A stretch of 64,000 nt of DNA from an uncultured Ferrimicrobium sp. (lineage in GTDB: Bacteria; Actinomycetota; Acidimicrobiia; Acidimicrobiales; RAAP-2), in NCBI GenBank assembly GCA_964449735.1, contig CAYUZO010000005.1, positions 6,071 through 70,070 of the forward strand. Direction: 5' to 3'. The notes below the pieces were generated by a model. It was given only the letters and a program-made list of their open reading frames with translations. It was not told the DNA's origin and made no database searches. Positions 11,817 through 51,663 of the stretch are shown one piece after another; the stretch's first letter is position 1, and every line of letters starts with the position of its first letter. The position numbers and the translations under genes were made by a program.

Positions 11817-11890
11817 GCGGGTGTAGTTCAGAGGTAGAACATCAGCTTCCCAAGCTGAGAACGCGGGTTCGATTCCCGTCGCCCGCTCCA
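11817..11890 (+). tRNA. tRNA-Gly (anticodon CCC)
   Basis: The 74-nt sequence is GCGGGTGTAGTTCAGAGGTAGAACATCAGCTTCCCAAGCTGAGAACGCGGGTTCGATTCCCGTCGCCCGCTCCA. The acceptor stem is GCGGGTG/CGCCCGC. The anticodon stem is TCAGC/GCTGA with loop TTCCCAA. The T-arm is GGGTTCGATTCCC, and CCA is encoded. Confidence 0.95.
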
Positions 11891-36728: not shown

Positions 36729-38192
36729 ATGTACCGCTCGTCCCTCACCCGACTGCGCCGGCGCGTCGGCCTGTCGGCCGCCGCCGGCGCCTTGGCCCTC
36801 GGCGGCGTCACCGTGGCCGCCGTCGCTGGCGCCTCGCCCCACTCGCACTCCAGCGCCGGTCGGCACAGCCATACCCACGTCAGCAGCGTCACGCTTCACT
36901 CCCGCTCGTCCGGCGCCCACCAGGTAGGTGCCCGCGACCACGGGGCCCATGGCGCCGATGGCGTGATCAGCGCCGTCTCGGCGACCTCGATCACCCTCGC
37001 CGAGCACGGCGTCGCGGTCACCTTCACGATCAACTCCTCCACCACGGTGACCGTCGGCTCGACCGCCTCGACCGCCTCGGCTCTGGCGGTGGGTGAGCAC
37101 GTCCGGGTGACGCCGTCGACGAGTGACCCGACGATCGCCGGTGCGATCCAGATCGAGCTCGTCCGCGTCGAGGGCACGCTGAGCGCGGCCTCGGCGACTT
37201 CGATCACCGTCTCCACTGAGTTCGGAGGCACCGCGACCTTCGCCATCGACGCCTCGACCACGGTCACGAAGGACGGGGCGGCCGCCACGGCCGCCGATCT
37301 CGCCGTCGGCCAGAAGGTCGTGGTGACCCCGTCGGCGTCCAACCCGACCACGGCGGCATCCATCGCCATCCACGCCAAGGTGTGCGTGAGTGGCACGATC
37401 AGCGCCGTCTCGGCCAGCTCGCTCACCCTCACGCCACGTAGCGGTGGCTCGGTGACCTTCGCCCTCACTGCCTTCACGACGGTGACGAGCGGCGGCACGG
37501 CCTCGAGCGTGAGCGCCCTCGCCGTCGGTCAGTCCGTCAAGGTCACCTCAACCGACGGGACGACCGCCGCGACCGTCGCGATCTCCCCGGCTCGCCAACT
37601 GCGCCACGGAACCGTGACGGCGCTCAGCGCCACCACCTTCACGATCACCTCGAAGGACAACAACGGTGACGCCGACGACAGCGGCGCGGCGACCACGGCG
37701 ACCTACACCGTCAACTCCTCGACGACCTACTTCGTCGGACGGACGGCCGCGACCTCGACCGCGCTGGGACTGAACGAGATGGTGATGGTCCAGCCCACTG
37801 CGGCCGACCCGACGGTCGCTGGCGTCGTCGAGATCGTGCCCGTGCGAGTGGTGGGCACCGTGAGCTCGATTGGCTCCAACACCTTCGTCGTCACCGTGCG
37901 CCACGGCGGCACCGTGACGATCGCGGTCGGCGCCTCCACCACCTTCACCACGGCCGGCGCGGCCTCGACCCTGTCGGCGCTCGCCACGGGTGACGGCGTC
38001 ATCGTGATTGGCGAGCCCGATGCGGTCACGGCCACCACCATTGACGCGGCCTCCGTGACCTTCGGAGCCTGGCTGGGCGGCGGTGAGCACGGCGGACCGG
38101 TCCACGCCTTCGGCGGCGGCGGTGGGTCCGGCGGTTCAGGCTTTGGCGGCGGCTTCGGCGGCGGACGCGGCCGCGAGGGCGGCCACCACTAG
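36729..38192 (+). CDS. secreted repeat protein: His-rich N-terminus, five DUF5666-like ~70-aa repeats, Gly-rich C-terminal tail
   Basis: A signal peptide is present. The five repeat units begin GVISAVSATSITL, GTLSAASATSITV, GTISAVSASSLTL, GTVTALSATTFTI and GTVSSIGSNTFVV. The tail is GGGGGSGGSGFGGGFGGGRGREGGHH. Confidence 0.8.
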   Translation: MYRSSLTRLRRRVGLSAAAGALALGGVTVAAVAGASPHSHSSAGRHSHTHVSSVTLHSRSSGAHQVGARDHGAHGADGVISAVSATSITLAEHGVAVTFTINSSTTVTVGSTASTASALAVGEHVRVTPSTSDPTIAGAIQIELVRVEGTLSAASATSITVSTEFGGTATFAIDASTTVTKDGAAATAADLAVGQKVVVTPSASNPTTAASIAIHAKVCVSGTISAVSASSLTLTPRSGGSVTFALTAFTTVTSGGTASSVSALAVGQSVKVTSTDGTTAATVAISPARQLRHGTVTALSATTFTITSKDNNGDADDSGAATTATYTVNSSTTYFVGRTAATSTALGLNEMVMVQPTAADPTVAGVVEIVPVRVVGTVSSIGSNTFVVTVRHGGTVTIAVGASTTFTTAGAASTLSALATGDGVIVIGEPDAVTATTIDAASVTFGAWLGGGEHGGPVHAFGGGGGSGGSGFGGGFGGGRGREGGHH

Positions 38193-40669
38193 CGAGGAGA
38201 AGGTCCCTGGGTGAGGGGCAGCTCCACTACGACGGTGGTGCCCCCACCCGGGGTGTCCTCGAAGCGGATCTCCCCGCCGAGAACCTGCGCGAGGCCCGAC
38301 GCCACGGACAGGTTGAGCCCGGCCCCGAGCGTCTCGCCCGAGAGGTGCTCGAAGGGCGCGGTGACCGCCCGGCGCACCGGTTCGGGCACCCCGGGCCCGC
38401 GGTCCACCACCAGGATCTCGAGCCGTCCCGCCACGACGCCGGCGCGCACCCGCACCGGTTCGGCCAGGGGGCCGAAGCGACATCCGTTCGTAATGACGTT
38501 GGCGAGCACCCGCTGGGCCAGCGCCGCGTCGGTCTCGACGACCAGGCGCTCCTCCTCGACGTCGAGCTCAAGTCGTCGACCTCGTGGGTCGATGGCGGCC
38601 AGCGCGCCGGCCAACAGGTGCCCCACCGAGACCGGGGCCAGGCGGACTTCGACCTCCCCGGCCTCGAGTCGCCCCGCGTCGACCAGATTCGTCACCAGCC
38701 GACGCAGACGGTGGATCCGCTCGGCGACCACCACGAGTGTCGCGCCGACCGCGGGGTCCTCGGCGAGTCGGCGCCGCAGCCCGTCGAGTTCCTCGGCGAC
38801 GTCGGCGAGCGGAGCGCCCAGGTCCTCGGCGGCCGTGCGGAAGAGCGCGAGGCGCAGCGACTCCGCCTCGGCCAGCGCCGCCAGCTCCGTGGCGTCGCGC
38901 GCGATCACCTGGCCCCGCAGACCGGCGGCCACGCGAGCCGCGAAGGCGCCGATCAGGCGGCGGTCCGGCGCTCCCAACCTCGCTCCCGCTACCGCCAGCT
39001 GGTGCTCGTCGTCGATCGGGAAGCGCTCGGAGGGACCCTCCTCGGCCTCCTCGCCGACGGCGACCTCGCTCTCCCACCGTCCGTCTCGTCGCACCAGCAC
39101 CGACACGGTGGCCGCGTCGAACACCTCGCGCAACGTCTCGAGCAGCGGGGCCAGGTCCTCGTGGGAGCTGAGCAGCCCGGCGGCGGTCCGCACCAGCACC
39201 TCAGCCTCCGCTCGCGCCCGCTCGGCCTCCGCCGAGCGTTGGGCGAGCCGTCCGACCGCCAGGCTCGCCACGATGGCGAAGAGCGCGAAGAAGACAAGGG
39301 CGGCGACGTCGTCGGGGCGGGCCACCGCGAAGGTGTGCAGGGGCGGCACGAAGAGGAAGTTCTCGAGCGTGGCCCCCGCGAGCGCCGTCACGAGCCCGAT
39401 GAGCGCGCCGGCCACGGCCGTCGCGCCGACCACGACGGCCAGGTAGGCGAGGGAGACGGTCGAGAGCGACAGATGCGTGCGCAGTGGCACCATCGCCGTG
39501 CTCAGCGCGGTGAGGGCCAGGACAGCCCCGAGCGCGCCGAGAAGCTGGCGACGTCGACCGACACGTTGCCGTCGGCGCCGCGCGCGAGTCCGGGCCGGCC
39601 GCTCCCCGCCCACCGCGATGACGTGCACGTCGAGGTCGCGGGCCCGGCGCAGGACCCCCTCGACGATCCCGGTCGGTGGTCGCCACCTCGCGCGGGGCCG
39701 GCTCGCACCCACCACGATCTGGGTCGCCCGCTCGGAACGGGCCACCGCAACCAGGGCCGTGGCCACCTCCTCGTCGACGACCTGGGTAAAGCGACCGTCG
39801 AGCTGGGCGGTGAGCTCGCGGGCCAGGGCCGCCTCCTCGCGTCCGGCGCGCTGCGCGTCGGCGGTCACCACGTGCACGGCCAGCAGCTCGGCGCCGGTGC
39901 GTGAGGCGATCCGGGCCGCGCGGCGCAGCAGGGCCTCGTCGACCTCGGTCCCGGTGACCCCGACGACCAGGCGCTCGCGGGTCTCCCAGGTCTGCTCGAT
40001 CGAGTGCTCGGCCTGATAGCGCTGGAGGGCGTCCTCGACACGGTCGGCCAGCCACAGCAGGGCCAACTCGCGCAAGGCGGAGAGGTTCCCGGGCCGGAAG
40101 TAGTTGCTGAGAGCCGCATCGATCCGGTCGGCGGCGTAGATATTGCCGTGGGCCATCCGTCGGCGCAGGGCCTCGGGGGTGATGTCCACCAGCTCGATCT
40201 GCTCGGCTCGGCGCACGACGGCGTCGGGGACGGTCTCACGCTGGGTGATGCCGGTCACCTTCTCCACCACGTCGTTGACCGACTCGAGGTGCTGGATGTT
40301 CACGGTCGTGATGACGTCGATGCCGGCCTCGAGGATCTCCTCCACGTCCTGCCAGCGCTTCTCGTGTCGTCCCCCGGGGACGTTGGTGTGGGCCAGCTCG
40401 TCCACGAGGACCACCTGGGGTCGTCGGGCCAGGACCCCGTCGAGGTCCATCTCCTCGAGGCGGGTCCCCCGGTACTCCCGCTCGACTCGAGCGAGCACCT
40501 CCAGGTCACGGACCTGGGCGGCGGTCCGCTCGCGCCCGTGGGTCTCGACGTAGCCCACCACGACGTCGGTGCCGCGATCGCGGCGCCGGCACCCCTCGTC
40601 GAGCATCCGGTAGGTCTTGCCGACGCCGGGGGCCGCGCCCAGGTAGACGCGCAGGCTCCCGCGAGCCAT
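38189..40669 (-). CDS. kdpD: KdpD-type sensor protein, full domain set but with Glu replacing the H-box histidine
   Basis: This 826-aa protein starts at ATG 40669 (ATGA overlap with the upstream gene). It has KdpD_N Walker A GAAPGVGKT, Usp, DUF4118 TMs, and an HATPase domain (VITNGCRF, DRGPGVP, GAGLNLS). The DHp motif reads LALFRTAAEDLGAPL. Confidence 0.88.
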   Translation of the reverse strand: MARGSLRVYLGAAPGVGKTYRMLDEGCRRRDRGTDVVVGYVETHGRERTAAQVRDLEVLARVEREYRGTRLEEMDLDGVLARRPQVVLVDELAHTNVPGGRHEKRWQDVEEILEAGIDVITTVNIQHLESVNDVVEKVTGITQRETVPDAVVRRAEQIELVDITPEALRRRMAHGNIYAADRIDAALSNYFRPGNLSALRELALLWLADRVEDALQRYQAEHSIEQTWETRERLVVGVTGTEVDEALLRRAARIASRTGAELLAVHVVTADAQRAGREEAALARELTAQLDGRFTQVVDEEVATALVAVARSERATQIVVGASRPRARWRPPTGIVEGVLRRARDLDVHVIAVGGERPARTRARRRRQRVGRRRQLLGALGAVLALTALSTAMVPLRTHLSLSTVSLAYLAVVVGATAVAGALIGLVTALAGATLENFLFVPPLHTFAVARPDDVAALVFFALFAIVASLAVGRLAQRSAEAERARAEAEVLVRTAAGLLSSHEDLAPLLETLREVFDAATVSVLVRRDGRWESEVAVGEEAEEGPSERFPIDDEHQLAVAGARLGAPDRRLIGAFAARVAAGLRGQVIARDATELAALAEAESLRLALFRTAAEDLGAPLADVAEELDGLRRRLAEDPAVGATLVVVAERIHRLRRLVTNLVDAGRLEAGEVEVRLAPVSVGHLLAGALAAIDPRGRRLELDVEEERLVVETDAALAQRVLANVITNGCRFGPLAEPVRVRAGVVAGRLEILVVDRGPGVPEPVRRAVTAPFEHLSGETLGAGLNLSVASGLAQVLGGEIRFEDTPGGGTTVVVELPLTQGPSPR

Positions 40670-41409
40670 CAGTCGTCCCGAGCCGGGGTGAGCACCGGGG
40701 CCACGATCTCGGCGATCGCCGCCGCGGCGGCCAGGCGGGCCGAGCCGATGGCCAGGCCCGGCGTCGGCGAGCCCACGAAGCGCCCGACGTCGCGACCGCG
40801 AAAGCGCACCGGCACCTCGAACTGCGGCCCGGGCAGCCCGAGCCGCTCGCTGTCCCAAATCAGCCCGACGTGCAGGACCTCACCGGCGGGGGTGATGCGC
40901 GCCAGCGGCGGTCCCTCACCGGGCTCGTCGAAGACGAGGCGCCGAGCCGAGAGCAGTTCGGTGATCGCCGCCAGGGCGTGGGTGAGGACGCCGTCGGCGG
41001 GCTCACCGGCCGCGACCACGGCCGCCACCTCGGCCACGAGCACCAGTTGGCGGCGCCCGTCGGCCGCCCGGAGCCAGTAGCGCCGACCGCGTGCGGCCAA
41101 CTCGGTGACCGCCACGCCCACCACCACCAGGGCGATAGAGCACTGCGCCTCGGTGCGGTCGGCGATGTTGAGATGGCCGTAGGGACGGGTGAGCAGCAGG
41201 TCGTAGAAGAGGGCCGCCGACACCGTGGCGAGCAGTCCCCAGAGCCGACGGCCCGGCGCGGCGACGGCAGCCACCGCGACGACGAGCACCAGCGCGCTGG
41301 CCGGCGCGGCCACCTGGCCGCGCAGGGGCACCATCGCGCCCGCCACCGCGAGCGGTGTCAGGAAGGCCCCGAGGGGGGCCAGGCGCCCGACCCGCCGGGC
41401 CCACGTCAC
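40669..41409 (-). CDS. DUF4118-type membrane sensor-core protein without a kinase domain
   Basis: This 246-aa protein starts at GTG 41409, which overlaps the kdpC stop as GTGA. It has a TM bundle with FYDLLLTRPYGHLNI followed by a ~130-aa soluble domain. The longer ORF-track start (41658) overlaps kdpC. Confidence 0.75.
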   Translation of the reverse strand: MTWARRVGRLAPLGAFLTPLAVAGAMVPLRGQVAAPASALVLVVAVAAVAAPGRRLWGLLATVSAALFYDLLLTRPYGHLNIADRTEAQCSIALVVVGVAVTELAARGRRYWLRAADGRRQLVLVAEVAAVVAAGEPADGVLTHALAAITELLSARRLVFDEPGEGPPLARITPAGEVLHVGLIWDSERLGLPGPQFEVPVRFRGRDVGRFVGSPTPGLAIGSARLAAAAAIAEIVAPVLTPARDD

Positions 41410-42002
41410 CGCTCGGCCCTCGCCAGTGCCTCGTTGAGCTCGAGCACCACGACGTAGCTCGAGCCGAGGAAGCCGAACTGGGCCGGGTGGGTCTGGGCCC
41501 TGATGAGCGACGCCAGGCGCGCCGCGCCAATGCCCGTGGCCCGTGACACCATCGGGATCTGAGCGTAGGCGTCGGCCGGCGTGATGTCCGGATCGAGCCC
41601 GCTGGCCGAGGTGGTCACCAGGTCGGGGGTCGGCGTGACCCCGTGGGCGTGCCACCACGCGACGAGGGCCCGCGTGTCAGCCAGGAGCGCCGTGGAACGC
41701 GGGCCGAGGTTCGTGGCCCCGAAGCCCCCCGTCACCCCGTTCGCCACGAGCGGGTTGTCCCCGTCGACGACCCCCGTCGCCGCGTCGTGGGCGTAGGGGC
41801 CGAAGCCGTCGGGTCGGCCGTGGAACCAGGCCGGGCTGGTCCAGTCCTGGCCGATCAGGCTCGACCCGTTCGGGCCCAGTGAGCCGTTGGCCTGGGCCGG
41901 GAAGAGGACCTGGGAGAGGCCCGTGCCCGCCAGGGCGTAGAGCAGCGTGAGGGCCAGCATCACGAGGGCCAGCAGGACCGAGCGGCGCAGGTGGATCAGC
42001 AC
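41406..42002 (-). CDS. kdpC: K+-transporting ATPase subunit C
   Basis: The 198-aa ORF has an N-terminal TM and KdpC blocks (SGLDPDITPADA), and it sits in the expected position after kdpB. Confidence 0.93.
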   Translation of the reverse strand: MLIHLRRSVLLALVMLALTLLYALAGTGLSQVLFPAQANGSLGPNGSSLIGQDWTSPAWFHGRPDGFGPYAHDAATGVVDGDNPLVANGVTGGFGATNLGPRSTALLADTRALVAWWHAHGVTPTPDLVTTSASGLDPDITPADAYAQIPMVSRATGIGAARLASLIRAQTHPAQFGFLGSSYVVVLELNEALARAER

Positions 42003-42011
42003 GGCGTCCTC

Positions 42012-44066
42012 CTAGTAGGCGTGTAGGGCGACGAGCGCCAGGTCGATGAGCTTGATGAACACGAAGGGCACGATCACGCCCCCGACGCCGTAGATGAGCA
42101 CGTTGCGGCGCAGGATCGCGGCCGAGTTGGTGGCGCGAAAGCGCACCCCGCGCAGGGCGAGGGGGATGAGGGCCACGATGACCAGGGCGTTGAAGATGAC
42201 GGCCGAGAGGATCGCGCTCTCGGGGCTGTGCAGGCCCATGACGTTGAGACTGCGCAACTGCGGGTAGGTCGTGACGAACAGGGCCGGGATGATGGCGAAG
42301 TACTTCGCGATGTCGTTGGCGATCGAGAAGGTGGTGAGCGAGCCCCGAGTGATGAGCAGCTGCTTGCCAATCTCGACGACATCGATGAGCTTCGTGGGAT
42401 TGGAATCGAGGTCGACCATGTTGCCGGCCTCCTTGGCCGCCGTGGTCCCGGTGTTCATGGCCACCCCGACGTCAGCCTGGGCGAGGGCCGGAGCGTCGTT
42501 GGTGCCGTCGCCGGTCATCGCGACCAGCTTCCCGCCCTCCTGCTCCTGGCGGATCAGGGCCATCTTGGCCTCGGGCGTCGCCTCGGCGAGGAAGTCGTCG
42601 ACCCCGGCCTCCTGGGCGATGGCGGCGGCCGTGAGCGGGTTGTCGCCGGTGATCATCACGGTGCGGATGCCCATCGCACGCATCTGGTCGAACTTCTCGC
42701 GGATCCCGGTCTTGACGACATCCTTCAACTCGATGACCCCGAGCACGCGCGCTCCGTCGGCCACGACGAGGGGCGTCGAGCCCGCCCGCGAGACCCTCTC
42801 GACGATCCCGTCGAGGTCGCCCGGGACCGTCGCGCCCTGCTCGAGCACCCACCGCTTGACCGACTCGGCGGCTCCCTTGCGGACCTGGCGGTCCGCCACG
42901 TCCAGTCCCGACATCCGGGTCGTGGCCGTGAAGGGGACGAAGACGTGATCGGCCCCCATCTCGCGCTCGCGCAGGTTGAAGCGCTCCTTGGCGACCACGA
43001 CGACCGAGCGACCCTCGGGGGTCTCGTCGGCCAGGGAGGCCAGTTGGGCGGCATCGGCCAGCGTCTCCTCGGTGACGCCCTCGACCGGCAGGAAGGCGGC
43101 GGCCATCCGGTTGCCCAGGGTGATCGTCCCGGTCTTGTCGAGCAACAGGGTCTGGACGTCGCCGGCCGCCTCGACGGCCCGTCCACTCATCGCGAGCACG
43201 TTGCGCTGGACCAGGCGGTCCATACCGGCGATCCCGATCGCGCTGAGGAGGGCGCCGATCGTGGTGGGGATCAGGCAGACGAGCAGAGCGACCAGCACCA
43301 CGACCGAGACCGAGGTCCCCGCGAAGTGCCCGAAGGGAACCAGGGTGACGACGACGGGGATGAAGACGATGGTCAGCACGGCCAGCAGGATCGTCAAGGC
43401 AATCTCGTTAGGGGTCTTCTGGCGGTTCGCCCCCTCGACCAGACCGATCATCCGGTCGATGAAGGTCTGGCCCCGCTCGGCGGTGATGCGCACCACGATC
43501 CGATCGGAGAGCACGCGCGTCCCGCCGGTGACCGCCGAGCGGTCCCCGCCCGACTCGCGGATCACCGGGGCCGACTCACCGGTGATCGCCGACTCGTCGA
43601 CTGAGGCGATGCCCTCGATGATGTCCCCATCGCTCGGGATCACGTCCCCGGCCTCGCACACGACCGTGTCGCCCTTGGCCAGGGAGGCGGCGGCACAGAT
43701 CTCCTCGCCACCCCCTTCGAGCAGTCGGCGAGCCGTCGTCTCGGTGCGCATCCGGCGAAGGGTGTCGGCCTGCGCCTTGCCGCGTCCCTCGGCCATCGCC
43801 TCGGCGAAGTTGGCGAAGAGCACGGTGAGCACCAGCCAGACGGTGATGGACCAGGAGAAGACCCCAGGATGACTGATGGCCTCGAGCAGGGAGATCACCG
43901 ATCCGACCAGGACGACGAACATCACCGGGTTGCGGGCCTGGACCCGGGGGTCGAGCTTGACGAAGGCCCCGCGCAGGGCCTGGCCCAGGATCTCGCGGTC
44001 GAAGAGGCCGCGGGCCTGGGCCACCCCCTTGCGAGGGGGCTCGGTCGTGGTCGCGACGACACTCAT
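42012..44066 (-). CDS. kdpB: K+-transporting P-type ATPase subunit B
   Basis: The 684-aa ORF has [15 protein letters not shown] and [16 protein letters not shown]. Confidence 0.97.
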
Positions 44067-45754
44067 CAGAAGAACCGTCCTTTCAGAAGCTCCTCGACGA
44101 TCGGACCGAGGCTGATCGCGGGGAAGAAGGTGAGCCCCCCGATGATCAGGATCACCCCCGTGGTCAGCCCCACGAACATGGGGTTGTCGGTGCGGAAGGT
44201 CCCCAGGCCCTCGGGGACCGCGGGCTTGGCGGCCAGTCGACCGGCCAGCGCCAGGACCGGGATGATGATGCCGAAGCGTCCCAGCAGCATCGCGACCGCC
44301 CCGAGCACGTTGTAGAAGGGGGTGTTGCCCCCGAGCCCGGCGAAGGCGGAGCCGTTGTTGTTGCCCTGGCTGGTGAAGGCGTAGAGGATCTCGGTGAAGC
44401 CGTGCGGGCCGTGATTGAGCGCGCCGGCGCGCCCGGCGGCCAGGGAGACCGCGAGGGCCGTGAGCACCAGGACCACGAGAGGCATCACCAGGGCCCCGAG
44501 CCCGGCCAGCTTCACCTCGGAGGCCTGGATCTTCTTGCCCAGGTACTCCGGCGTGCGCCCGATCATCAGTCCCCCGATGAAGACCGCGATGATCGCGTAG
44601 AGCAGGATCGTGTAGAGACCGCTGCCGACCCCACCGGGCGTGACCTCGCCGAGCATCATTCCCGTGAGCAGCCCGAAGCCCCCCATCGGGGTGAAGGAGT
44701 CGGCCGACGAGTCCATCGAGCCGGTCGAGGTGGAGGTGGAGGCGACGGCGAACAGGGCGCTGGAGGTGTCGCCGAAGCGCGACTCCTTGCCGACCGTGTT
44801 GCCCGTGCTCGAGTGGACACCCGCCGCGGCGACCGCCGGATTGGACTGGTGCTCGGCGTAGCTCGTGAAGCCGACCCAGACCCCGAACAGGAGCGCCATC
44901 ACCGCCAGCAGGGTCGCCCCGTGACGCACCGAGCGCACCATGGCGCCGAAGGTGTAGGTGAGGGCGACGGGGATCGCGAGCAGCAGGTAGATCGAGAGGA
45001 AGTTGGTGAGGCCCGTCGGGTTCTCGAAGGGGTGGGCCGAGTTGGCGTTGAAGAAGCCCCCGCCGTTGGTGCCGAGCTGCTTGATCGCCTCCATGAAGGC
45101 GACCGGGCCGCGTGCGATTGTCTGGGTCACCTGGTTCAAGGCGTCGTGGATCGTCGCCGGTCCCGCCAGGGTCATCACCGCGCCCTCGGCCACGAAGACG
45201 ATCCCGAAGAGGAAGGCGATCGGCAGCAGCACGTAGAGCACCGCCCGGGTGATGTCGACCCAGAAGTTCCCCACCGTCGTCGCGTTGCGTCGGGCGAAGC
45301 CGCGCACCAGCACGATGGCCGCGGCGATCCCGACAGCGGCCGACACGAACTGCTGGACGGTGAGCGCACCGATCTGGGAGAGGTAGGACATCGTGGTCTC
45401 GCCGGCGTAGTTCTGCCAGTTGGTGTTGCTCACGAAGCTGGTCGCGGTGTTGAAGGCCAGACCCGGGCTCACCGCACCGAGGTGCTGGGGGTTGAGCGGC
45501 AGGTGGGCCTGGAGGCGCAAGAGGGCGTAGGTGAAGAGGATCGAGACCGCCGAGAAGACGACCATCGCCCCCGCGTAGCGCTTCCAGGTCTGCTCGGAGT
45601 CGGGGTCGGTGCCGAGCAGGCGGTACAGGGGTCGCTCGACGACGGCGAGGAAGCGGACCCGGCCCTCGAAGACGGCCGCCATGTAGGCACCGAGGAACCG
45701 CCAGGTCACGCCCAGCAGGACGACCAGCGCGAGCAGGGTCGCGGCGAAACCCAT
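44066..45754 (-). CDS. kdpA: K+-transporting ATPase subunit A
   Basis: This is a 562-aa polytopic ORF with KdpA selectivity-filter-like blocks ([26 protein letters not shown]). Confidence 0.96.
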
Positions 45755-45843
45755 CAGAACCTCTCGGGCTTGAACATGGCGTAGCCGAGGTAGAGGAACA
45801 TCGCGATCGACACGACGAGCAGCAGGACCTGGGAGAGGCTCAT
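45754..45843 (-). CDS. kdpF: K+-transporting ATPase subunit F
   Basis: The 29-aa peptide [29 protein letters not shown] matches the KdpF pattern (single TM, C-terminal PE+F). Its TGA overlaps the kdpA ATG. It is below the ORF-track cut-off. Confidence 0.85.
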
Positions 45844-45932
45844 ACCTTGTCCAGACCCCTCGCCAGCCCGAGGAAGGCGGCCACGAAGGCCGCGACGCCG
45901 ATGATCGTCAGGAGGTCGCCCATGACGTCCAT
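45840..45932 (-). CDS. 30-codon single-TM micro-ORF translationally coupled upstream of kdpF
   Basis: The peptide is [30 protein letters not shown]. Its TGA overlaps the kdpF ATG as ATGA. An internal Met4 start is also possible. Confidence 0.45.
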   Translation of the reverse strand: MDVMGDLLTIIGVAAFVAAFLGLARGLDKV

Positions 45933-45979
45933 CCTCGGCGAGCTCGCCCTGAACGCGCTCTTGACGTCGGCACGGCGTC

Positions 45980-45995
45980 CTTCATTCTTTCTTCA
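45980..45995. promoter_or_regulatory. candidate OmpR-family (KdpE) site: CTTCA direct repeat at 11-bp spacing in a T-rich patch
   Basis: In CTTCAttctttCTTCA the repeats start at 45980 and 45991. The site lies ~50-60 nt upstream of the first kdp-operon start codon, in the 119-nt divergent spacer. Confidence 0.3.
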
Positions 45996-46051
45996 CGCGC
46001 TGACGCCACGCTCCGTCGGCGGCGACCCGGACTCCGGACCATACTGAGAGA

Positions 46052-47518
46052 GTGGACCGGCGCCTTCGCGGCGGGCTTCTGGGAGCCCTAGGACTGGCCG
46101 GGCTCGCCGGGGCGATGATCCCCCTGCGCCCACACCTGGCCATCTCGACGAGCGCGCTGGTCCTGGTGGTCCCGGTCGTCCTGGCTGCCGCCGCCGGGGG
46201 CTTCGCGGCGGGGCTCGGGATCGCGGCACTGGGCTTTCTCGCCTTCGACCTGCTCTTCATCCCTCCCTACGGCACCTTGAGCGTGGGCGCCGGCCAGAAC
46301 TGGGTCGCGCTGGCCGTCTACCTGGCGGTGACCGCCCTCGTCGCGCGGGTCGTCTCGCACCTCGACAGTTCCCGGGCCGAGGTTGAACGAGGCGACGTCG
46401 CGGCCCGGCGCCTCGTGGAGCTCTCCGAGATCCTGGTCGGCGACCGTCCCGTCGACGAGCTGCTGCGCGGCATCGCCCAGGCGGCCCACGGCGCTCTCGG
46501 CATCCCGGGGGTGGCGCTGCTGGTCCTCGAGGGTGATCGGCTCCGGGTCGCCGCCATGGCCGGCGACCCGCTGGCGCCCGAGGCCCTCGCCGACCTCGCC
46601 GACGGCGCGGGCCACCCCGTCGCGGTCGGTGCCGTCGGCCCCTCGGGCGAGCCGCGCTCGATCGCCCTGGTGGCCTCGGGGCGCCCAGTCGGGGTGTTGG
46701 TCCTCTCCGAACTACCCGAGCGCCCCGCCGAGCGGGACCTCCTCACGACCTTCGCCAACGACGCCGCGCTCGCCCTCGAGCGAGCCCGCCTGCGCGAGCA
46801 GGCCGTACGCACTCAGCTGCTCGAAGAGGTGGACCGCTTCCGCCAGGGCCTGCTCGGAGCGGTGAGCCACGACCTGCGCACCCCCTTGGCCACGATCAAG
46901 GTGGCCTCCTCGGCGCTGGCGAGCGAGGGTGACGCCTTGGCCCCCGCGGGCCGCGCGGAGCTCTACCGGCTGATCGAGATGGAGGCCGACCGGCTGGGTC
47001 GGCTCGTGGCCAACCTCCTCGACCTCGCTCGCGTCGAGGCGGGAGTGCTCACGGTCCAGCGCAGCCCCGTCCCCGTGACGGAGCTCGTGGAGGAGGCGCG
47101 GGCCGCCCTGGGCCCCGCCCTGTCCGATCATCAGGTCCTGGTCGAGATCGAGCCAGGACTCCCCGAGGTGCTGGCCGATCCGGCGCTCGTGAACTCGGTG
47201 CTGGTGAACCTCCTCGACAACGCCCAGCGCCACTCGCCCCCCGACGCCCCAATCACGGTGAGCGCTCGGTGTCGTGGGGCCGAGGTGGAGGTCGCGGTCT
47301 GCGACGAGGGCCCCGGCGTGCCGGCGCCCCTGCGCGACGCGATCTTCCACCGCTTCACCCGGCTCGACACCGCGGGGCGGTCCGGACTCGGCCTGGCCCT
47401 CGCTCGCACCTTCGTCGAGGCCCACGGAGGGCGCATCGGGGTCGAGGAGGCCCCCGGGGGAGGGGCCCGGTTCGTCTTCACCCTGGAGCCCGCGTCCTTC
47501 GCGGTCGAGGAGCCCTGA
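46052..47518 (+). CDS. sensor histidine kinase equivalent to the C-terminal half of KdpD (DUF4118-GAF-like-HisKA-HATPase)
   Basis: The 488-aa ORF has a GTG start. DUF4118 TMs (FDLLFIPPYGTLSV), an intact H-box AVSHDLRTPL (His273, 46868..46870), N-box LLDNAQRH, G1 DEGPGVP and G2 GLGLALAR are present. It has no KdpD_N or Usp domain. Confidence 0.9.
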   Translation: MDRRLRGGLLGALGLAGLAGAMIPLRPHLAISTSALVLVVPVVLAAAAGGFAAGLGIAALGFLAFDLLFIPPYGTLSVGAGQNWVALAVYLAVTALVARVVSHLDSSRAEVERGDVAARRLVELSEILVGDRPVDELLRGIAQAAHGALGIPGVALLVLEGDRLRVAAMAGDPLAPEALADLADGAGHPVAVGAVGPSGEPRSIALVASGRPVGVLVLSELPERPAERDLLTTFANDAALALERARLREQAVRTQLLEEVDRFRQGLLGAVSHDLRTPLATIKVASSALASEGDALAPAGRAELYRLIEMEADRLGRLVANLLDLARVEAGVLTVQRSPVPVTELVEEARAALGPALSDHQVLVEIEPGLPEVLADPALVNSVLVNLLDNAQRHSPPDAPITVSARCRGAEVEVAVCDEGPGVPAPLRDAIFHRFTRLDTAGRSGLGLALARTFVEAHGGRIGVEEAPGGGARFVFTLEPASFAVEEP

Positions 47519-48195
47519 TGGCTCGCGTGCTGGTGATCGACGACGACGCCTCCCTGCTGCGAGCGCTGCGGGTGGGCCTGCCGGCACTCGGCCACGAGGT
47601 GATCACGGCCAGCACCGGCGAGGCCGGCCTCTCCCAGGTCGCCCTCACGGCCCCGGACGTCGTCGTCCTCGACATGGGCCTGCCCGATCTCGACGGTCTG
47701 GACGTCTGCTCGCGCATCCGGGCGTGGAGCGAGGTGCCAATTATCGTGCTGTCGGCGGCGGGTGACGAGACGACCAAGGTGACCGCCCTCGACGGCGGAG
47801 CCGACGACTACGTCACCAAGCCCTTCTCGCTGCCCGAGCTCGGCGCGAGGATCCGGGCCACGCTGAGGGGCCGTCGGCGCGAGACCGAGGAGCCCGCCGA
47901 GGTGACGAGTGGGAACCTGCACCTCGACCTCGTGAGACGAGAGGCCCGCGCCGGCGACCGGGTGCTCCCGCTCACCGTGAAGGAGTTCGACCTGCTGGCC
48001 TTCCTGATGCGTCACGCCGGGCGCACCTGCACGTACCAGATGATCCTCCAGGCCGTCTGGGGGCCGACCTACGACCGTGAGGCGAGCTACGTCCACGCCT
48101 ACGCCCATCGCCTGCGCGCCAAACTCGCCGCCGAGGACCGCCTGAAAACCGTGCCGGGGGTCGGGTATCGCTTCGAGGACCCCCCTTCCGCGTAG
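47518..48195 (+). CDS. kdpE: OmpR-family response regulator (KdpE-like)
   Basis: The ATG overlaps the kinase TGA. The receiver domain (VLVIDDD...VVVLDMGLPDLDG...KPF) and a winged-helix output domain (VPGVGYRF) are present. Confidence 0.88.
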   Translation: MARVLVIDDDASLLRALRVGLPALGHEVITASTGEAGLSQVALTAPDVVVLDMGLPDLDGLDVCSRIRAWSEVPIIVLSAAGDETTKVTALDGGADDYVTKPFSLPELGARIRATLRGRRRETEEPAEVTSGNLHLDLVRREARAGDRVLPLTVKEFDLLAFLMRHAGRTCTYQMILQAVWGPTYDREASYVHAYAHRLRAKLAAEDRLKTVPGVGYRFEDPPSA

Positions 48196-48213: not shown

Positions 48214-48798
48214 ATGTCACCAGGGCGCATGGAGGCCTTCAGCGACGGCGTCATCGCCATCATCATCACGGTGATGGTGCTGGGGCTGCGGATGCCCCAC
48301 GGCACCACCCTGAGCGCCCTGCACGCGATCTACCCCCAGCTACTCGCCTACCTGCTCAGCTTCGCCAACCTCGGCATCTACTGGGTGAACCACCACCACC
48401 TCCTGCGCACGATTCACCGGGTGACGGGCGGGATGCTCTGGGCCAACCTGAACCTGCTCTTCTGGCTCTCGCTCTTCCCCTTCGCCACCGCCTGGATGAG
48501 CCAGAACGGCTTCGCCCACACCACGGTCGCCGTCTACTCCTTCGTGCTCTTCGCCGCGGCGATCTCCTACTTCGTGCTCCAGAGCGTGATCGTGCGCGGC
48601 GACTCGGAGGACGACGCACTGCGCGACGCCCTCGGGAGGGACTGGAAGGGCAAGGGCTCGATGGTCGCCTACCTGGCGGCCATCCCCCTCGCCGGGTGGT
48701 GGCGCTGGGGATCGCTGGCGATCGTGGCCGCGGTGGCGATCACCTGGCTCATCCCCGATCGCCGCCTAGAAGCGCACCTCGAGGCGCACGACCACTAG
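48214..48798 (+). CDS. TMEM175/DUF1211-family potassium channel
   Basis: The 194-aa ORF has six TM segments and the N-terminal RxxxFSD signature (GRMEAFSDGVIAI). Confidence 0.8.
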   Translation: MSPGRMEAFSDGVIAIIITVMVLGLRMPHGTTLSALHAIYPQLLAYLLSFANLGIYWVNHHHLLRTIHRVTGGMLWANLNLLFWLSLFPFATAWMSQNGFAHTTVAVYSFVLFAAAISYFVLQSVIVRGDSEDDALRDALGRDWKGKGSMVAYLAAIPLAGWWRWGSLAIVAAVAITWLIPDRRLEAHLEAHDH

Positions 48799-50351: not shown

Positions 50352-51101
50352 CTAGAACTTGGTCCCGACCTGGCCCGGCGTGACGCCGACCTGGGTCGCG
50401 ATCAACTGGTAGGGCAGGCCGTCACCAGAGCCGTCCGCACCGTTCACCGTGAACTGGTTGTTGCTGCAGTCCTTGTGGGACCCACCGTTCGCGATGCAGG
50501 TGCTGTAGGAGACCCCACCGGCCAGCGGGTACTGGTTCCAGACGCCGGGCCCGTTGCCCGAGAGCATCGAGGCGTACTCGAAGGTGAAGGTGAAGTTCTC
50601 CGACCAGCCGGGCTGGACGTTGCTCGCCAGCAGCAGCGGCGAGGTCAGCGGCCAACAACCGGAGTTCGAACCCGACGGAATCGCGTTGGAGAACGGTCCG
50701 CAGCTCGTCGAGTTGTCATCGAGGTTGTAGGAGGTGAACACCGAGCCCACCGACCCTCCGCCCGCCGACGAGACCTGGACGCTGCCGTAGCGGCCCAGGT
50801 TGTTCAGCGCGCTCAGCGCCGTCGCGTTGGGAAAGGCCAGGTAGACGTCCTCGGGGCTGGTGCCCGAGTTGTGGTAATTCACCTGGACCGTCTGGGGCAC
50901 GCCGGGCAGGAGGTTGGAGAACCCGATGCTCGTCGGGCTGTCCGTCGAGACCAGGATGCTCCCGATCGTCCCCGAGATGCTCCCGTTGTGGGTGTCGCTG
51001 AAGTACGCCCCCGTCGACCCGGAGGCCACGACAGCGGTACCACCTAGCAAGGCGATGCTGGACACAAGGGCTAGAACCCTCGCCTTGGCGCCTCTCTTCA
51101 T
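50352..51101 (-). CDS. TasA/camelysin (M73)-like secreted fibre subunit with a SipW-cognate-type signal peptide
   Basis: The 249-aa ORF begins MKRGAKARVLALVSSIALLGGTAVVASGSTGAYFSD..., which matches the GG(T)FAYFSD signal/cleavage motif of TasA and camelysin. Confidence 0.82.
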   Translation of the reverse strand: MKRGAKARVLALVSSIALLGGTAVVASGSTGAYFSDTHNGSISGTIGSILVSTDSPTSIGFSNLLPGVPQTVQVNYHNSGTSPEDVYLAFPNATALSALNNLGRYGSVQVSSAGGGSVGSVFTSYNLDDNSTSCGPFSNAIPSGSNSGCWPLTSPLLLASNVQPGWSENFTFTFEYASMLSGNGPGVWNQYPLAGGVSYSTCIANGGSHKDCSNNQFTVNGADGSGDGLPYQLIATQVGVTPGQVGTKF

Positions 51102-51663
51102 GTTGTAATCCTTTTCTGTTGATGCCCTGACTCTCAGAGCGGAATGAACGAGGTGGCGGTTTCGCCATTAGCTCCCCACGGGCGGGGCGACCACACAAGG
51201 CCCGTGGTTCAACGCATCACCTGAAAAGGCCAGTCAGACCGATAACTGGGCAGACGGGACCACTCCTACAACGGAATTGTCGTAGGTGAGAACTCAGTCC
51301 TCTTCGAGTGTCCCCCAGCCGCAGAGTCGGAATGCCGACGCCTGGGCTCTCTCCTTTCCTCCTACGCAGTGAACGGAGGGATTTCGGGCACTCGCTCCCT
51401 GTCTGACGTGAACACCGACGATCTCTGAGGCTCCACCGACACGTCCGTATCATCACCATCAGCCCCACCCGGAGTGGTTCTGATGTCAGTGAAACGAGCC
51501 CTTGCAACCATCGATATACATCAGTACATCTCGAACTTCACGAAACTACTTCCTCCAATAGAGGGTCCTATCACGTGACAAGTTGTTCGTCAATTGAGAA
51601 TGTAGGCTCTGAGAACAATTCTACAAACCACACCGGTGTCGTCTGAATTATCTGTTCGTTTCC

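Follow-up and report, generated by a model that had tools for sequence, protein, structure and literature searches.

KdpD/KdpE is a textbook two-component system. In a stretch of 64,000 nucleotides from an uncultured Ferrimicrobium sp. of the Acidimicrobiales (assembly GCA_964449735.1, contig CAYUZO010000005.1, positions 6,071 to 70,070, forward strand), hereafter called the window, the kdpFABC pump operon ends with a kdpD-like gene (38189..40669, minus strand) that encodes a full-length KdpD of 826 amino acids (aa) in which glutamate stands in the column of the phospho-acceptor histidine. Divergent from this operon lie the genes of a second histidine kinase, HK2 (46052..47518, plus strand), and of an OmpR-type, KdpE-like response regulator (47518..48195, plus strand). 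The two jobs of KdpD would here be split between two proteins at the kdp locus. On balance, it is probable that labour is divided, with KdpD controlling the pump post-translationally, and HK2 and the KdpE-like regulator controlling transcription. An earlier note on this DNA had instead read KdpD as a pseudo-kinase that works with a partner kinase, which is unproven and is considered less likely than the division of labour.

A full-length KdpD without its acceptor histidine

The window protein carries the Usp, DUF4118, GAF-like and transmitter regions in canonical KdpD order behind the N-terminal domain, and its gene adjoins kdpFABC. The N-terminal KdpD_N domain (residues 3-211; 40037..40663) matches PF02702 at 8.5e-98 over model positions 2-210 of 210, and matches the PDB entry 2r8r at 1.9e-64 in phmmer; it is a putative atypical serine kinase with a Walker A motif (G11-T19; 40613..40639) and a Walker B pair (D90/E91; 40397..40402). 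It is followed by Usp (residues ~232-352; 39614..39976; PF00582, 9.6e-06, with an alpha/beta pattern in the AlphaFold model), the four-helix membrane domain DUF4118 (residues 382-484; 39218..39526; PF13493, 4.3e-17, AlphaFold helices 372-499), a GAF-like alpha/beta unit (residues ~500-566; 38972..39172) placed by AlphaFold secondary structure, a degenerate DHp helical hairpin (residues 596-672; 38654..38884), and the CA domain (HATPase_c, residues 673-820; 38210..38653; PF02518, 2.2e-18, also delimited by its motifs and by alignment with E. coli KdpD), all on the minus strand. The earlier note had listed these modules for the full-length protein, and Pfam finds KdpD_N, Usp, DUF4118 and HATPase_c as it described. 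Its GAF-like region is supported by the alpha/beta unit that AlphaFold predicts at residues 503-561, but the Pfam GAF family has no match in the 826-aa protein.

Four independent alignments agree that Glu615 (codon GAG, 38825..38827, minus strand) occupies the column of E. coli KdpD His673. In the phmmer match to the E. coli KdpD DHpCA structure (6lgq), 'aalsHDLrtPL' lies over 'rtaaEDLgaPL'; in BLASTP against E. coli K-12 KdpD, H673 pairs with E615; in BLASTP against HK2, 'AVSHDLRTPL' pairs with 'TAAEDLGAPL', with Glu615 opposite HK2 His273; and in a MAFFT alignment of 120 homologues Glu615 again stands in the phospho-acceptor column. The H-box S-H-D-L-R-T-P-L has become A-E-D-L-G-A-P-L, in which the arginine at His+3 is replaced by glycine and the threonine at His+4 by Ala619, so that not only the replaced histidine but also the changed flanking Ser, Arg and Thr are as the earlier note had described them. 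The phosphatase motif H-[E/D]-x-x-[T/N] is absent, the window KdpD reading E-D-L-G-A at this place. A Pfam HisKA match is lacking in the 826-aa protein at E <= 0.01, and no other histidine in residues 596-826 is conserved in the His-less group. Because glutamate replaces the acceptor histidine and alanine replaces the His+4 threonine, the protein would be unable to use the canonical histidine and is, judging from its sequence, dead as both a histidine kinase and a phosphatase. The automatic annotation 'sensor histidine kinase KdpD' is almost certainly wrong for this protein and its His-less relatives.

The remainder of the transmitter is predicted to be folded. The CA domain keeps N724, N728, the G1 residues D756, G758 and G760, F773 and G784, and its G2 box carries Gly786Asn; the motifs VITNGCRF, DRGPGVP and GAGLNLS are found where the earlier note had placed them and align to the E. 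coli N, G1 and G2 boxes. The AlphaFold model, built with 40 homologues, has a mean predicted local distance difference test score (pLDDT) of 77, with ~80-90 in the transmitter. DHp forms the usual hairpin in it (helices 567-634 and 639-670), and CA has an alpha/beta fold. In Foldseek, the model matches E. coli KdpD DHpCA (6lgq_C) with a target-normalised TM-score (TMt) of 0.74, and other HisKA kinases match equally well, including the pseudokinases DivL and RetS. Identity to E. coli KdpD is 40% over the N-terminal 480 residues and 25% in the transmitter.

Loss of the acceptor histidine among relatives

The loss is not confined to the window. The protein set consisted of the 120 best matches in a set of 5.8 billion proteins, with 57-81% identity and mostly from Acidimicrobiales metagenome-assembled genomes. 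When these clusters were aligned together with HK2 as an intact reference, the His column held K 51, H 28, N 16, R 7, T 6, S 4, D 3, Q 2, A 2, E 1 and Y 1, where HK2 itself supplies one of the 28 histidines. Only 27 of the 120 closest clusters keep the histidine and 92 are without it, and the two closest relatives (81% and 68% identity) have Asp in this column. The locus set, 80 loci drawn from one genome per species and annotated by blastp with the window proteins, contains 29 KdpDs without the histidine and 11 that keep it but have lost the threonine, often together with the proline (HDLRPA, HDLKPA, HDVRPS, HDLREP). At least 40 species-level genomes belong to this H-box-degenerate clade. Across the His-less group, the phosphatase Thr/Asn position is G, E, R or A.

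Loss is thus recurrent among orthologous loci, and the glutamate to which the earlier note had given special weight is one replacement among many, relatives having K, T, N, R, S, D, Q, A, V or Y in this column. A specific role of Glu615 as a phosphomimetic was rejected since the column shows no chemical constraint. When 1.84 billion cluster representatives were searched exhaustively with HMMER, 113 near-full-length ones came out as closest to the query, of which 93 keep the histidine and ~11 well-aligned ones do not, so that loss recurs at deeper divergence too. The eleven His-less near-full-length representatives (P0162, P0165, P0180, P0187, P0204, P0210, P0211, P0213, P0229, P0230 and P0310) each fall in a different 50%-identity cluster and have P, A, N, R, G, Q or Y in the column.

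Two variants within the locus set are worth describing in their own right. In L013 (10001-12490) and L014 (5410-7899; both approximate), Tyr stands in the His column of KdpD (SYDLREP), as it does in DivL; a response-regulator gene still lies downstream of KdpD in both, and L013 also has HK2 and its regulator. In a subclade of nine loci (L028, L029, L030, L034, L036, L037, L041, L044 and L045) the histidine is kept and the phosphatase threonine, often with the proline, is replaced (HDLRPA, HDLKPA, HDVRPS); HK2 is present in this subclade and the downstream regulator is lost. These His-kept, Thr-lost proteins may be intermediates, or kinases without phosphatase activity.

Gene context and H-box state

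In the window, the downstream neighbour of kdpD is a convergent gene that Pfam assigns to DUF5666 and not a regulator, and the sole response regulator in the 64 kb is the one coupled to HK2. The same context was counted elsewhere only where the flanks reached 7.5 kb or more upstream and 0.9 kb or more downstream (46 loci). The divergent HK2 and regulator are present in all 18 loci with a His-less KdpD, 17 of which have no downstream regulator, and in all seven loci in which the histidine is kept and the threonine lost, none of which has a downstream regulator. Taken together, H-box-degenerate KdpDs stand beside HK2 and a KdpE-like regulator in 25 of 25 loci, and 24 of these 25 are without a downstream kdpE. 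Among the 21 canonical loci, in contrast, HK2 and its regulator occur in two and a downstream regulator in 17 (15 have the downstream regulator without HK2, two have both and four have neither). The difference between degenerate and canonical loci with and without HK2 (25/0 vs 2/19) gives a Fisher p = 5e-11, in which shared ancestry is uncorrected. The pairing of a His-less KdpD with a second kinase, noticed in the earlier note for this single locus, is therefore a regular feature of the degenerate loci.

In a neighbour-joining tree of residues 1-590, the HK2-bearing loci form one Acidimicrobiales clade, and lineages with both systems (L007 and L042) lie inside it. The different H-box states are spread over distinct branches, namely A; E, for the window protein; N/Q; the HDxxP forms; R; T; K; and S/N/V/Y/T. 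The simplest history starts from a canonical kdpDE locus that acquired HK2 and its regulator; the old kdpE was then lost, and the H-box afterwards decayed several times independently, the tree suggesting some six or more losses.

Evolutionary rates and residue conservation

KdpD_N is the slowest-evolving domain; within the His-less group its amino-acid identity is 85%, compared with 43% in DHp. Among the domains of canonical relatives, DHp ranks second in conservation (57% identity; non-synonymous rate, dN, 0.42 vs 0.20 for KdpD_N), whereas in the His-less group it is the least conserved (43%; dN 0.69 vs 0.11 for KdpD_N). The CA domain is also relaxed in the His-less group, and the rates of Usp, the membrane domain and GAF relative to KdpD_N are unchanged. 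Erosion of the ATP-binding motifs is visible as well, with N724 kept in 9/29, F773 in 10/29, G784 in 10/29 and G786 in 18/29, and with G1 largely kept.

The ratio of dN to the synonymous rate (dN/dS) is well below 1 in every domain. Whole-group absolute values were set aside, and between-domain ratios and the tighter Lys and Thr subclades were used; the Lys subclade gives dN/dS values of 0.06 (DHp) and 0.15 (CA), and the Thr subclade 0.18 and 0.32, respectively. As the transmitter is constrained within these tight subclades, the rates indicate a region that has changed function and then settled and is not drifting to oblivion.

In HisKA kinases, the positions His+7, +8, +11 and +12 reportedly set regulator specificity, according to the work of Skerker and Laub. 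Canonical KdpDs read Ala/Ser-Thr/Ala at the specificity positions and HK2 reads Ala/Thr/Val/Ala, and the His-less group has scattered residues there, many of them charged. At His+7, Ala is found in 36 of 38 canonical KdpDs and in 27 of 29 HK2s, and E, S, A or D in His-less KdpDs, in which His+8 and His+12 are likewise scattered. This scatter argues against retained docking of a response regulator.

The putative N-terminal serine kinase and its target on the pump

The earlier note had called the N-terminal region a sensing domain, a description that falls short of what is known of it. The N-terminal domain of KdpD alone is an atypical serine kinase that phosphorylates KdpB at Ser162 (Silberberg et al. 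2024, PMC11018627), and this phosphorylation inhibits KdpFABC at high K+. The E. coli enzyme uses its Walker A motif, Walker B residues D109/E110, W39 and R190, and both the H673A exchange and deletion of DHpCA leave KdpB phosphorylation intact (PMC11018627). According to the same study, conservation of the serine-kinase domain extends more widely than that of the histidine kinase, and species that have the histidine kinase on a chain of its own still encode the serine-kinase chain downstream of the pump genes.

The residues in question are present in the window. Its Walker A motif GAAPGVGKT aligns to E. coli G30-T38, with K18 and T19 present; D90/E91 correspond to E. coli D109/E110 and R171 to R190; and Tyr20 takes the place of Trp39, keeping the aromatic character. 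These serine-kinase residues are kept in 28-29 of the 29 His-less, 11 of the 11 His-degenerate and 37-38 of the 38 canonical KdpDs, with Y or F at the aromatic position. The target site is also in place, since Ser165 of the window KdpB (43572..43574, minus strand), in the TGES segment 'ITGESAP', corresponds to E. coli Ser162 and is preceded by Glu164, the segment being identical to that of E. coli KdpB. The His-less KdpD is thus probably a membrane-anchored, K+-sensing serine kinase that shuts off the pump post-translationally.

The Acidimicrobiales clade can be seen as a natural separation-of-function experiment for the two activities of KdpD. The histidine-kinase chemistry has been lost repeatedly and the serine-kinase domain is the most conserved part of the protein, which supports the serine kinase as the core function of KdpD.

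The second kinase, its regulator and the 246-aa protein

HK2 is a DUF4118-GAF-HisKA-HATPase_c kinase by Pfam and keeps its acceptor, as the earlier note had stated, with a HisKA match of 2.2e-13 and His273 encoded by CAC (46868..46870, plus strand). It is 31% identical to residues 454-879 of E. coli KdpD (E 9e-42). Of 29 orthologues, 27-29 share its H, N, G1 and G2 motifs, and the H-box region is nearly invariant. In matches to E. coli KdpD DHpCA, the HK2 transmitter reaches 120 bits, canonical actinobacterial KdpDs 115 bits and His-less KdpDs 72 bits. The start codon of the regulator overlaps the stop codon of HK2 (TGATG), and the regulator, recognised by Pfam and by alignment with E. coli KdpE, is 40% identical to the latter (E 1e-54); the NCBIfam KdpE model gives 1.1e-50 on it, which is below the cut-off and not the best match. 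From these similarities, HK2 and the regulator look like a real transcriptional pair.

Between kdpC and kdpD lies the gene of a 246-aa DUF4118 and GAF-like protein without a transmitter (40669..41409, minus strand; assigned from Pfam, an AlphaFold model and the gene overlaps). The model (pLDDT 90) has four membrane helices and a GAF-like domain, and GAF-domain proteins, the E. coli KdpD GAF (4y2f, 4qpr) among them, make up nearly all of the listed Foldseek matches, with a best E-value of 0.044; the GAF assignment is only suggestive. No NCBIfam family matches this protein. It has ~34 homologous clusters, the named ones from Acidimicrobiales, and nearly every Acidimicrobiales kdp locus encodes it, irrespective of the state of the His column in KdpD. 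Weaker relatives are encoded upstream of kdpA in other Actinomycetota loci (L049, L054, L068 and L073). The 246-aa protein, a third KdpD-like sensory core at the locus, may be part of the same membrane assembly.

The proposed division of labour and its alternatives

The proposed mechanism can be laid out in steps. KdpD, dead as a histidine kinase and phosphatase by its sequence, would act on the pump with its N-terminal serine kinase, its own membrane and GAF-like module probably supplying the K+ signal and translational coupling to the pump genes supplying matching amounts of protein; the residue conservation and the experiments in E. coli and Deinococcus point this way. HK2, through His273, and the KdpE-like regulator would drive kdpFABC transcription via the intergenic region of ~120 bp, as gene order and homology suggest. 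From the locus survey and the tree, the arrival of HK2 and its regulator and the loss of kdpE would have made the H-box dispensable, after which it decayed independently in several Acidimicrobiales lineages. In the weakest step, the DHp-CA stub would survive as a folded, probably dimerising scaffold or regulatory module and not as an enzyme. For the dead transmitter, a dimerisation scaffold that is needed for K+ gating of the serine kinase is favoured over contact with HK2 or a DivL-like receiver.

Several points weigh against this proposal. Serine-kinase activity, K+ regulation and the link from HK2/KdpE to the kdp promoter are all inferred in this clade. A serine kinase alone gives no reason for the retention of a dead transmitter under purifying selection in at least 40 species-level genomes, because DHpCA of E. 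coli is dispensable for this activity, and in Campylobacterota and Archaea the transmitter is truncated instead (PMC11018627). The window CA domain keeps nearly all of its ATP-binding residues, which hints at a nucleotide-dependent role outside the model. The regulator scores about equally on MtrA, KdpE and RpaB models, and HK2-linked regulators are less like E. coli KdpE than the regulators downstream of kdpD (158 vs 203 bits). Lastly, the neighbour-joining tree carries no support values and the number of loss events is approximate, and dS is near saturation (1.0-1.5), which leaves absolute dN/dS soft. The retention of a folded dead transmitter is the part from which most could be learned, as the answer could reveal the route of the K+ signal to the serine kinase or an interaction of the pseudo-kinase.

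In the alternative put forward by the earlier note, KdpD binds HK2 through DUF4118/GAF, DHp or a heterodimer and either passes on an allosteric signal or phosphorylates His273 in trans with its CA domain. This is an unlikely but serious alternative, and it is compatible with a KdpD that acts as a serine kinase. It would account for the presence of HK2 in 25 of 25 loci, for the common DUF4118-GAF-DHp-CA architecture of the two proteins (32% identity over 470 residues), for the N724, N728, G1 and F773 kept in the window CA domain, and for the purifying selection on the dead transmitter within subclades, which wants an explanation. However, the decay of the ATP-lid residues (F773 10/29, G784 10/29 and N724 9/29) means that trans-phosphorylation cannot be the general function, and DHp is the fastest-evolving domain between subclades while the HK2 H-box is nearly invariant, which is unlike a conserved heterodimer interface. 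The co-occurrence from which a physical interaction of KdpD and HK2 is deduced is equally well explained by functional replacement. KdpD need not borrow the kinase of a partner, because its N-terminal serine kinase offers a plausible autonomous catalytic job.

It is rather doubtful that the DHp-CA region has acquired a signalling role of a new kind and is no passive scaffold, acting as a DivL-like receiver of the state of HK2 or of the KdpE-like regulator, or as an ATP sensor, that gates the N-terminal serine kinase. If this were true, transcriptional and post-translational control of the pump would be physically coupled via a pseudo-histidine kinase, and the 246-aa DUF4118-GAF protein could be a third member of the membrane complex. 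Very unlikely is a reversed flow of signal as in DivL, in which the dead DHp-CA binds phosphorylated KdpE or another regulator and reports the state of transcription to the serine kinase. The transmitter model does resemble DivL (4q20; phmmer 5.9e-13; TMt 0.69), the L013 and L014 relatives combine Tyr in the His column with a downstream regulator, and there is precedent for repurposed histidine-kinase cores in PMC4211667 and, with PsmA, in PMC12963549. The regulator-specificity positions of helix 1 have nevertheless diverged in the His-less group, and what likens the transmitter to DivL is common to the HisKA fold in general, HK853 and CpxA matching equally well.

That KdpD is still a phosphotransfer kinase, using another histidine or an acyl-phosphate on Glu615, is highly improbable. 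The largely intact CA domain and His653 on DHp helix 2 would speak for it, but position 653 is Q, R or H in the group, the acceptor column shows no chemical constraint across relatives (K, T, N, R, S, A, V, Q, Y), a Pfam HisKA match is lacking and no cognate regulator lies downstream. An alternative acceptor was rejected after a scan of residues 596-826, in which no column has His in more than 8 of the 29 His-less relatives. A one-codon sequencing or assembly error, or a decaying pseudogene, which a metagenome-type assembly might suggest, has a negligible chance and was rejected, given the intact 826-codon frame, the identical 826-aa product in the Logan assembly of SRR24111734 (possibly from the same reads as the NCBI record), four changed H-box positions and not one, relatives that also lack the histidine (92 of the 120 nearest clusters), low dN/dS in every domain and a confident AlphaFold model.

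Organisation of the locus and other features of the window

The minus-strand operon is ordered tiny open reading frame (ORF), kdpF, kdpA, kdpB, kdpC, DUF4118 gene and kdpD-like gene, the last being the final gene of kdpFABC-DUF4118-kdpD. Its members upstream of the DUF4118 gene are kdpC (41406..42002; by translation, and by PF02669 on the same gene in locus L082), kdpB (42012..44066; Pfam, 66% identity to E. coli KdpB), kdpA (44066..45754; PF03814, 2.9e-223) and the 29-aa kdpF (45754..45843), which is named from its position and hydrophobic sequence. Just upstream of kdpF in the same operon lies a second tiny hydrophobic ORF (45846..45923, minus strand; MGDLLTIIGVAAFVAAFLGLARGLDK...), which may encode an extra KdpF-like peptide. 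The start of the DUF4118 gene overlaps the end of kdpC and its stop overlaps the start of kdpD, whose ATG at 40669 shares its A with the TGA of the DUF4118 gene (TGATG); because of these overlapping stop and start codons, kdpC, the DUF4118 gene and kdpD are probably translationally coupled. HK2 lies upstream of the operon and diverges from it, and the shared intergenic region (45930..46050) measures ~120 bp. Directly after the HK2-regulator pair is a gene for a TMEM175-like K+ channel (48214..48798, plus strand; PF06736, 1.1e-29), which has the same position in L001, and the two-component operon may co-express this K+ leak channel.

Scans of 37900..46200 gave no promoter-like site and a single terminator-like site, the latter within shuffle expectation, and both scans are uninformative for a high-GC genome. 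With Rfam, no c-di-AMP (ydaO) riboswitch was found in the kdp leader, and an S. aureus-type c-di-AMP motif is not obviously present in the Usp domain on inspection by eye only. The sole Rfam matches in the window scan are a tRNA gene (11817..11887, plus strand; RF00005, 70 bits) and a c-di-GMP-II-GAG riboswitch aptamer (51145..51228, minus strand; RF03169), which matches the full model with 54.5 bits against a gathering score of 40 and has an ORF (50352..51101, minus strand) downstream of it.

Comparison with known systems

Searches of the literature on KdpD as a pseudokinase, in Acidimicrobiia, or as an atypical serine kinase found no description of this arrangement. The closest reference is Supplementary Data 2 of PMC11018627, which classifies 5495 species and has no class that pairs a full-length His-less KdpD with a separate kinase. 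The class 'KdpD,Usp + TM,GAF,DHpCA' (140 species) represents split systems that resemble the window in that the 3' end of the kdp operon encodes the serine-kinase chain, the histidine kinase is a protein of its own with membrane-GAF-DHp-CA architecture and comes with a KdpE-type regulator, and the serine-kinase residues and the KdpB TGES site are conserved. The window chain differs in that it is not KdpD and Usp only, as its 826 aa include membrane, GAF-like, DHp and CA regions whose catalytic determinants are destroyed, and in that its arrangement probably arose by gain of a kinase and decay of the old one and not by never fusing. The class 'Truncated DHpCA + TM,GAF,DHpCA' (33 species, mainly Bacillota) likewise combines a long serine-kinase chain that lacks histidine-kinase function with a separate intact kinase, but the window transmitter is complete, predicted to be folded and under purifying selection.

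The class 'Full length, Mutated catalytic His' (8 of 5495 species, in Chlamydiota and Pseudomonadota, and 0 of 1511 Actinomycetota) shares with the window a full-length KdpD with an intact Walker A motif, an intact Walker B motif and no catalytic histidine, and includes Chlamydia sp. and Legionella hackeliae. Both of the entries examined, out of eight, have no KdpE accession and no partner kinase recorded. The earlier note had counted a full-length His-to-Glu form as not known; a class of full-length His-mutated forms does exist, but none of its members is from Actinomycetota, and no class pairs this form with a partner kinase. The window form is different in being a clade of at least 40 species-level genomes in which KdpD is paired with HK2 and a KdpE-like regulator. 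E. coli KdpD/KdpE has the same domain order, the 40% identity over the N-terminal 480 residues and an identical KdpB target site, and the window departs from it by the exchange of His673 for Glu and Thr677 for Ala, by the missing downstream kdpE and by a transmitter with only 25% identity.

Outside KdpD, DivL of Caulobacter and PsmA of Streptomyces are HisKA-fold proteins that have lost the acceptor histidine and are kept for roles other than phosphotransfer, and PsmA also lacks the D/ExxT/N phosphatase motif. Their input domains and biology are unrelated, and the window KdpD carries a second, independent kinase domain, which gives it an obvious retained function. The NCBIfam family NF038185, 'KdpD-like non-kinase potassium sensor' (a 373-aa short form), matches the N-terminal 352 residues of the window protein at 2.1e-109, but its 366 bits fall short of the 550-bit cut-off and the family has no membrane or transmitter region. 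It is already known that KdpD can be a serine kinase only and that the two activities can sit on separate chains, and the present finding leaves this picture of KdpD standing and does not overturn it. The new form is a full-length pseudo-histidine kinase that is kept across a clade, is accompanied by a second kinase throughout the loci with enough flank, and has an H-box that decayed repeatedly and independently.

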